A DNA stretch of 39,681 nucleotides, taken from Escherichia coli (GTDB lineage Bacteria > Pseudomonadota > Gammaproteobacteria > Enterobacterales > Enterobacteriaceae). Below, one piece after another: positions 7,917-8,714 of this stretch (its first letter is position 1; each line of letters opens with the position of its first letter). The stretch lies in the NCBI RefSeq assembly GCF_003334815.1, contig NZ_QOWO01000035.1; one strand, written 5' to 3'. A model generated the notes under the pieces. It was not told the DNA's origin. It did not search any database and was given only the letters and a program-made list of their open reading frames with translations. The translations under genes were made by a program, and so were the position numbers.

Positions 7917-8714
7917 AACTTGCTCCTTAGCCGTTATCGTTTCGAATATGTCATCCTTTTCATTATTTACATCCTTGTCCGAATCGTTGTTCAATATAGT
8001 AAACGCCTATAAGAACTTTACCCTTCGTGAACTAATACGTCTATTAACACTAATCAATACTTCAGATTTATCCATCACGCACTCCATATATTGATCCTAA
8101 GTAAGATTCCTGGTTGTTATCAGCTTGTAAATAGCAAACAAAAAGTTAACGTTTGCGGATTACTGCCCAAGAATAAGTTATCAATAACCAGTTTGTGATC
8201 TCTGAAGAATATTACTAAAGTTAAAATGTAATCCGATTTAAATATCGAGTCTCCTTGTTTCGACTTAAGCTGGCAATTGGATTGCCAGCTTTCTTTTAAC
8301 GCATTGAAATTACCTGAGTAAATAACGCATTCATGTCTTCAGGTTTTTATATAGCGTCTGGAGACACGGATATTTATGCAATGTAATCAACGCCAGTTGC
8401 AAAAAAATGAACCCGGATTACTTATTTAACCGCCCATAGCATCAACGCTTACGGAACTCTTTGTTCACTTTCCCACAGCACTTTTAAAACATTAAACCTG
8501 ACTACGGAAAATATCAGCCATGATAATGTTTGAAATGGCTAATTTGCCATAGAGTGAAAAAAATTAGATGAAATTCAGTAGGTTGAAATAATCACTAGCA
8601 GGTAATTATTTCAATGATAGTGCGCAATTGATCTACAACACTGCGTAGCGGAGAGAGTATTAATCGGATCATAGTCACATCAAGTGACTATGATCCGGGT
8701 GACAACCGGGGTAA
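7917..8714 (-). promoter_or_regulatory. Long AT-rich gadE upstream regulatory region (multiple promoters)
   Basis: About 800 bp of non-coding, AT-rich sequence between hdeD and gadE. From established knowledge gadE has several promoters integrating EvgA/YdeO/GadX/GadW/H-NS; individual sites not resolved by eye. Confidence 0.55.
8193..8298 (+). ncRNA. arrS: Candidate antisense sRNA inside the gadE leader (position fits ArrS), shown with its promoter
   Basis: On the + strand: -35 ttgtga (8193-8198), 17-nt spacer, -10 taaagt (8216-8221), then about 70 nt on a perfect 11-bp hairpin aagctggcaat / attgccagctt (8267-8291) followed by tttctttt. Confidence 0.45.

Follow-up and report, generated by a model that had tools for sequence, protein, structure and literature searches.

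A stem-loop without a U-tract downstream of hdeD as the probable protective 3' end of the hdeD mRNA in Escherichia coli

A perfect palindrome lies directly downstream of hdeD in E. coli, and we consider it likely that it is the 3'-terminal protective stem-loop of the hdeD mRNA, the end of which would be trimmed back to the stem after Rho termination further downstream. An earlier note on this DNA, made from the sequence alone, had named an RNA 3'-end stability element as one of two options for the palindrome. This option is now supported by a published Term-seq end 4 nt past the stem, by the lack of a U-tract and by covariation of the paired arms. The hairpin most likely belongs to a class of elements that is known, common and already described.

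The hdeD-gadE locus

The window, by which we mean the whole stretch of 39,681 nt that was analysed, is the E. coli acid fitness island in reversed orientation relative to MG1655. Window positions (w) were converted to chromosomal coordinates as MG1655 = 3657567 + (8715 - w), and the conversion is verified, since the letters flanking the Term-seq end described below are equal to those of the window. The main features of the locus are:

7389-7916, minus strand: gadE, with its ATG at 7916
8228-8297, plus strand: arrS
8482, minus strand: gadE transcription start T3, at -566 from the gadE ATG (literature values in PMC3708157, cross-checked with ChIP-exo offsets)
8717-8715, minus strand: hdeD stop codon, TAA
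8715-9287, minus strand: hdeD coding sequence, 190 aa (ORF list and RefSeq annotation of the identical K-12 sequence)
9542 and 9978, plus strand: hdeA and hdeB, respectively

Two further structures in the window were identified in passing. The ES205 match in Rfam (105 bits, 7200-7271, minus strand) corresponds to GadF, an sRNA annotated in the spacer between gadE and mdtE. Two identical perfect 11-bp hairpins, AAAAAACCGAC-TTTGC-GTCGGTTTTTT, lie 231 bp apart at 16707-16733 and 16938-16964 with A6/T6 flanks; they match the flank of the agrB terminator in the Term-seq table and are probably the duplicated terminators of the agrA/agrB sRNAs.

Geometry and stability of the hairpin

The palindrome had been described as a perfect 13-bp inverted repeat with a 5-nt loop at 8666-8696. 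We found this repeat, ggatcatagtcac-atcaa-gtgactatgatcc, at that place and perfectly paired, but the stem is one pair longer (C8665/G8697), so that the full structure has 14 bp and a 5-nt loop and occupies 8665-8697. It begins 18 nt and ends 50 nt after the TAA, in agreement with the 20-50 nt given before. Its parts are:

8698-8714, minus strand: 17-nt spacer from the hdeD stop to the hairpin, with little conservation and a greater length in other Escherichia species
8684-8697, minus strand: 5' arm of the stem in the hdeD-sense RNA, CGGAUCAUAGUCAC
8679-8683, minus strand: 5-nt loop, UUGAU in the hdeD sense (UUGAU, UUAAU or AUUAA according to lineage)
8665-8678, minus strand: 3' arm of the stem, GUGACUAUGAUCCG

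It exceeds in length every other perfect inverted repeat with a loop of 3-10 nt in the window. When the window was shuffled 100 times with a first-order Markov model, stems of at least 13 bp appeared at a mean of 0.01 per shuffle, and a stem of 14 bp was seen in none of the 100. A 121-nt RNA around the hairpin has a folding z of -3.8, and the hairpin by itself folds at about -25 kcal/mol on either strand, with a stem of 50% G+C.

The 8 nt past the stem read AUUAAUAC in the hdeD sense, where only three are uridines, and GGGUGACA in the antisense; this agrees with the earlier observation that neither strand has a U-tract. The T-tail score of the hairpin was 1.28 in the sense and 0.33 in the antisense direction, whereas the ArrS and agr-type terminators in the window scored 2.6-3.7; these relative values were used alone, because the classical terminator d-score is negative even for genuine terminators with modern energies. 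A consensus terminator scan of the window made no call at the hdeD 3' hairpin. The missing U-tract, the low T-tail score and the silent scan together bear out the earlier statement that this is not a classical intrinsic terminator.

Three other candidate features were rejected. A promoter-like match at 8743-8714 (minus strand) agrees with 9 of 12 consensus positions, and the region has fewer such matches than shuffles do. A terminator-like match at 8694-8710 (plus strand) has a 5-bp stem that is not conserved in the B2-type allele. As a substrate of RNase III, which needs roughly 20 bp, the 14-bp stem is too short. It was also seen that each arm of the E. coli stem holds a GATC Dam site (8667-8670 and 8692-8695, 25 bp apart); these sites are probably incidental, because E. 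albertii and E. whittamii lack them in their form of the stem (GCCUCAUA...).

A mapped RNA 3' end and a downstream Rho signal

Mapping of the 3' end of the hdeD mRNA had been proposed as a check, and a published end is indeed present. Term-seq of cells grown in M63 glucose to OD 0.4 gave a curated RNA 3' end at MG1655 3657621 (plus strand), with a mean of 1150 reads and the flanking letters CCCCGGTTGTCACCCGGATCATAGTCACTTGATGTGACTATGATCCGATTA / ATACTCTCTC (Adams et al., 2021; PMC7815308). This position is 8661 on the minus strand of the window, that is, on the hdeD strand, 4 nt past the stem. The end was called in one of three Term-seq conditions with a modest read count, and its distance of 54 nt from the stop codon, beyond the cut-off of 50 for 'primary' ends, placed it in the class 'orphan' (PMC7815308). 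On the opposite strand across the hairpin interval, no 3' end is listed in the tables of Adams et al. (2021). As a second data set for the hdeD end, the SMRT-Cappable-seq supplements were searched and contain no hdeD entry or coordinate.

Further downstream, a bicyclomycin-sensitive Rho termination region was reported at 3657733 (plus strand) for cells in LB at OD 0.5, with a Rho score of 6.83 and a significance of 2e-20 (PMC7815308). Its peak corresponds to window position 8549 (minus strand), 112 nt downstream of the Term-seq end. In DirectRNA-seq, the reads upstream and downstream of this point numbered 101 and 28 without bicyclomycin, and 251 and 475 with it (PMC7815308). The Rho score is calculated over 800-nt windows, and the downstream one takes in gadE P3 (T3 at 8482). 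Under bicyclomycin the reads downstream outnumber those upstream, so hdeD read-through cannot account for the whole signal; some of it must originate past hdeD, at gadE P3 or in its long 5' UTR. The presence of P3 within the scored region, the excess of downstream reads and the different media of the two data sets (LB for Rho, M63 glucose for Term-seq) make the Rho step the less secure part of the model for hdeD.

The composition of the RNA past the hairpin was examined, and two features were noted:

8535-8664, minus strand: untranslated, AT-rich stretch with C over G and rut-like composition (C/G of 1.2-2.4 in 60-nt windows)
8650-8658, minus strand: ACUCUCUCC, a pyrimidine-C-rich motif that begins 7 nt past the stem

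Below about 8535, some 130 nt past the hairpin, the composition flips to G over C (C/G below 1). We infer that ACUCUCUCC is the start of a Rho loading region. In every Escherichia species examined, an ACUC(C/U)C motif follows the hairpin at a distance of 3-7 nt; this may be where Rho makes its first YC-rich contact, or a coincidence. The same motif was also seen past the unrelated hdeD hairpin of Kluyvera cryocrescens (ACUCCAGAG).

All this resembles what was described by Dar and Sorek (2018; PMC6061677), who found that Rho-dependent transcripts end immediately 3' of stable stem-loops that lack a U-tract, that PNPase and RNase II trim the transcripts back to these stem-loops, and that enrichment of C over G and rut sites occur just downstream of them. 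Such structures were present at nearly all Rho-class 3' ends (PMC6061677).

We therefore propose the following model. The hdeD mRNA would be monocistronic, with the palindrome encoding its 3'-terminal stem-loop. RNA polymerase would read through the hairpin, since intrinsic termination would need a U-tract behind it. Rho would then load on the untranslated C-rich, G-poor RNA just past the hairpin and stop transcription diffusely, about 100-170 nt past the hairpin and ahead of the gadE P3 promoter, thus acting on the hdeD read-through itself. The 3'-to-5' exonucleases PNPase and RNase II would trim the tail until the 14-bp stem blocks them, and so create the end at 8661. The mature end, ...GAUCCG-AUUA-3', would remain and protect the hdeD mRNA from further decay, the stem in this way probably raising the stability of the message. 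The end 4 nt past the stem and the bicyclomycin-sensitive region downstream were established in published experiments; the perfection of the stem, its single copy, its conservation with covariation, the lack of a U-tract and the excess of C over G downstream come from the present analysis. The protective role would hold whichever way the primary end arises, and Rho acting downstream is its most likely source.

One other way in which the end could arise is that the hairpin is itself a weak, non-canonical intrinsic terminator, the long stem and the partly U-containing AUUAAUAC releasing some polymerases at or near 8661 with Rho as a back-up. The end does lie close to a very stable hairpin, the Rho score may be inflated by the activity of gadE P3, and Dar and Sorek (2018; PMC6061677) note that some ends of the Rho class may be intrinsic terminators of low efficiency that are in transition. 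We nevertheless regard this explanation as unlikely. The 8-nt tail has only three U, the consensus scan was negative, and the T-tail score is less than half that of the real terminators in the window; the tails of the orthologs described below (CAUAUAAC and GCGUCAUA) are no richer in U and have no U-tract either. Intrinsic release usually takes place 7-9 nt past the stem, and the mapped end, at 4 nt, falls short of this distance.

The protective stem-loop and the Rho region could also be given a broader role, as an insulator that conditionally separates the hdeD promoter, which GadE activates, from the control region of gadE; we think it quite improbable that they serve as one. If they did, relief of Rho termination (by stress or remodelling of H-NS) would let hdeD transcripts read into gadE, read-through of hdeD would be a positive-feedback input to gadE, the master regulator of acid resistance, and the hairpin would set the amount of hdeD message surviving in either state.

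Copy number and conservation in E. coli

The earlier note had considered that the palindrome might be a common repeat with many genomic copies and had suggested a genome search for these. In our survey of 5426 complete E. coli genomes, the hairpin was present in exactly one copy per genome and always on the chromosome (3932 + 1305 genomes), and the repeat family envisaged there is thus not found. Three 'plasmid' matches were mislabelled chromosomes of 4.8-4.9 Mb, and true plasmids did not carry the hairpin; it was also not found in the phages and viral contigs searched. Within the window there were no further copies of the arms, the sole other match having two mismatches and being within chance. 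A permissive Rfam scan of 7000-10500 gave nothing at the hairpin, ES205/GadF being the sole match. A repeat family (REP/BIME, ERIC, MITE) or a mobile element is ruled out by the single copy and by the absence from phages, viral contigs and real plasmids.

The hdeD 3' region was found in 5413 of the 5426 genomes, and in about 1300 of these 5413 the hdeD 3' allele is merely 80-90% identical. At least 5237 of the 5426 genomes have kept the two arms intact, a number made up of two hairpin alleles, with the loop TTGAT (n = 3932) and with the loop ATTAA (n = 1305); two of the allele counts share an inner 31-mer, so that the same loci were counted in both. The divergent alleles differ in the arms at 0-1 of 26 positions, compared with 19-29% in the adjacent non-coding flank (binomial P of about 0.002-0.004, for lineages that are not independent). 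The closing pair is C-G in one E. coli allele and U-A in the other.

The loop has a history of its own. Read in the hdeD sense, the B2-type loop of about 1300 genomes is ATTAA, and its exact reverse complement, TTAAT, forms the loop in Escherichia sp. MOD1-EC7003 and E. coli SCPM-O-B-8794. The comparison of these alleles suggests that a single loop inversion, rather than three substitutions, would account for the change, and hints that the two arms recombined, or that template switching took place between them, in the DNA.

We also came across one strain, E. coli Z1324SEC0014 (L005, 1696-2721), in which an IS903B element (IS5-like) is inserted at the 3' end of hdeD; its similarity to the window ends near 8754, and hdeD is thus cut off there from its hairpin.

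Conservation in Escherichia and beyond

For comparison across the genus, HdeD loci were taken from GTDB species representatives. A hairpin is present at the homologous position in E. albertii, E. whittamii, Escherichia sp. E1V33, 'E. coli' E69 and two more E. coli-like lineages, with folding energies of -18 to -26 kcal/mol throughout. Most of the inner stem, CAUAGUCAC, is kept across the genus, and in the outer stem 4 bp of each arm are swapped in a compensatory manner from GGAU/AUCC to GCCU/AGGC. In the alignment, 95% of the cells are paired, compared with 23-46% in controls in which the partner was slid by 1-3 columns. Both partners are altered in three pairs, and the covariation score was not equalled in any shuffle, the compensatory changes amounting to only 2-3 evolutionary events. 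In distant species the hairpin forms a modest island of identity (0.64-0.70, compared with 0.40-0.45 in the flanks).

At one stem position, E. albertii, E. whittamii and E1V33 have A.C on the hdeD-sense strand and G.U on the antisense strand, and E69 has the reverse. The covariation thus argues for a helix without telling the two strands apart.

Beyond Escherichia, Kluyvera cryocrescens (L013, 3068-3123) has a 57%-identical HdeD followed by a different, 11-bp hairpin without a U-tract (ACGAUCUACCC/GGGUAGAUCGU, -19 kcal/mol), located in a 56-nt gap before a convergent ORF of 176 aa. This structure is thus analogous, not homologous, to the Escherichia hdeD hairpin. A contig of 8.6 kb labelled Flavobacterium paronense CECT 8460 carries an hdeD locus with 98% protein identity and DNA nearly identical to that of K-12; it is almost certainly an E. 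coli contamination of that assembly.

The conservation bears on a further explanation, in which the palindrome is a functionless DNA-level quasi-palindrome, its arms being kept perfect by template-switch or intra-strand repair, that incidentally stalls exonucleases once it is transcribed. The ATTAA loop as the exact reverse complement of TTAAT would fit an arm-mediated inversion of the loop at the DNA level, the arms are perfect in most lineages, and template-switch repair could perfect them without selection at the RNA level. However, a hairpin persists at this position in five or more Escherichia species, although the flanks have undergone heavy turnover and indels. In Kluyvera, too, hdeD is followed by a hairpin without a U-tract, unrelated in sequence, and structures of this kind stand at almost all 3' ends of the Rho class (Dar and Sorek, 2018; PMC6061677). 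We consider this explanation very improbable.

Protein binding at the palindrome

The second option of the earlier note was a dimeric protein-binding site, and our results disfavour it. As an operator of a dimeric DNA-binding protein, the palindrome would mark the extreme upstream end of the 798-bp control region of gadE or serve as a downstream site for hdeD. Its perfect dyad symmetry fits this role; the whole hdeD-gadE intergenic region is regulatory, with more than 10 regulators, and ArcA-P gel-shifts the P3 fragment, the site within this fragment being unmapped. The ArcA motif, on the other hand, is a direct repeat. The changes at the base of the stem, from GGAT/ATCC to GCCT/AGGC, keep complementarity and not the sequence of the half-sites, which points to a helix rather than to half-sites. 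The centre of the hairpin is also about 199 bp upstream of T3.

A look at ChIP data for acid-resistance regulators, as had been suggested, gave peaks of GadE, GadW and GadX in ChIP-exo at 8570-8535, at 8486-8462 and at P1, none of them overlapping the hairpin; the peaks were converted with an offset of +1977, which reproduces T1 = -124 and T3 = -566 exactly. The hairpin does not match the EvgA inverted repeat. Searches with regulator motifs gave one EvgA-box-like match, which is distant (6379), and for the GAD box no match anywhere, known GadE targets included, so that the latter search was insensitive and is uninformative. Finally, it is the block 8538-8480, and not the hairpin, that is truly invariant in this region. 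Taken together, an operator at this place is highly improbable.

Two observations on the neighbouring DNA should be mentioned. All Escherichia species examined, E. albertii among them, keep the block 8480-8538 at 93-100% identity, far above that of its surroundings, and the block overlaps the gadE P3 promoter, T3 and a GadW/X ChIP-exo peak. Between the P3 block and the arrS 3' end, the segment 8300-8378 has a column identity of 0-12% to E. albertii, E. whittamii, E1V33 and E69; from the alignment it looks like a replaced or indel-rich segment within the 5' UTR of the gadE T3 transcript.

Meaning of the hdeD 3' end

A full-text literature search on the hdeD-gadE intergenic stem-loop found no paper that discusses the hairpin, which appears only as an 'orphan' row in a supplementary table of Adams et al. 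(2021). A study of hdeD in connection with CyaR and RprA deals with the 35-nt 5' UTR only, with no mention of the 3' end.

With the protective stem-loop as the preferred reading, hdeD gains a defined 3' boundary, a 54-nt 3' UTR that ends at 8661 (MG1655 3657621), and an account is given of a Term-seq peak that was left 'orphan' solely for lying 4 nt beyond the 50-nt cut-off. The first 50 bp or so of the '798-bp gadE promoter' would then belong functionally to hdeD and not to gadE control. The value of this lies in a tidier annotation; the hairpin would be a textbook example of a described class and raises no new question.

Comparison with known systems

The hdeD hairpin can be compared with four kinds of known element. 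With intrinsic terminators, such as the ArrS terminator (8267-8291), it shares the position of a hairpin at an RNA 3' end and a comparable folding energy, but it lacks a U-tract of 7-8 nt, its stem has a G+C content of just 50%, and the RNA ends 4 nt past the stem instead of 7-9 nt. With the operators of acid resistance (the 18-bp inverted repeat of EvgA, the GAD box, the 42-bp GadX/W sites) it has in common the dyad symmetry and the location between hdeD and gadE; it differs in having no sequence match or ChIP-exo peak, in its covarying arms and in its distance of about 200 bp from the nearest start. REP/BIME elements act as mRNA 3' stabilisers, for example in malE-malF. Like them, the hdeD hairpin is a transcribed palindrome 3' of a gene that is proposed to block 3'-5' exonucleases, but REPs are multi-copy and follow a consensus, whereas the hdeD hairpin is single-copy in each genome and unrelated to REP.

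The closest counterparts are the protective stem-loops of Rho-class transcripts (Dar and Sorek, 2018). Compared with these, the hdeD stem is longer and more perfect than is typical (14 of 14 bp), the dependence of its end on exonucleases is presumed, and its Rho signal is confounded by gadE P3. The likeness is otherwise considerable: a stable stem-loop stands directly upstream of a precise 3' end, it has neither a U-tract nor an upstream A-tract and is not a REP, and C prevails over G directly past the hairpin, followed by a bicyclomycin-sensitive region.
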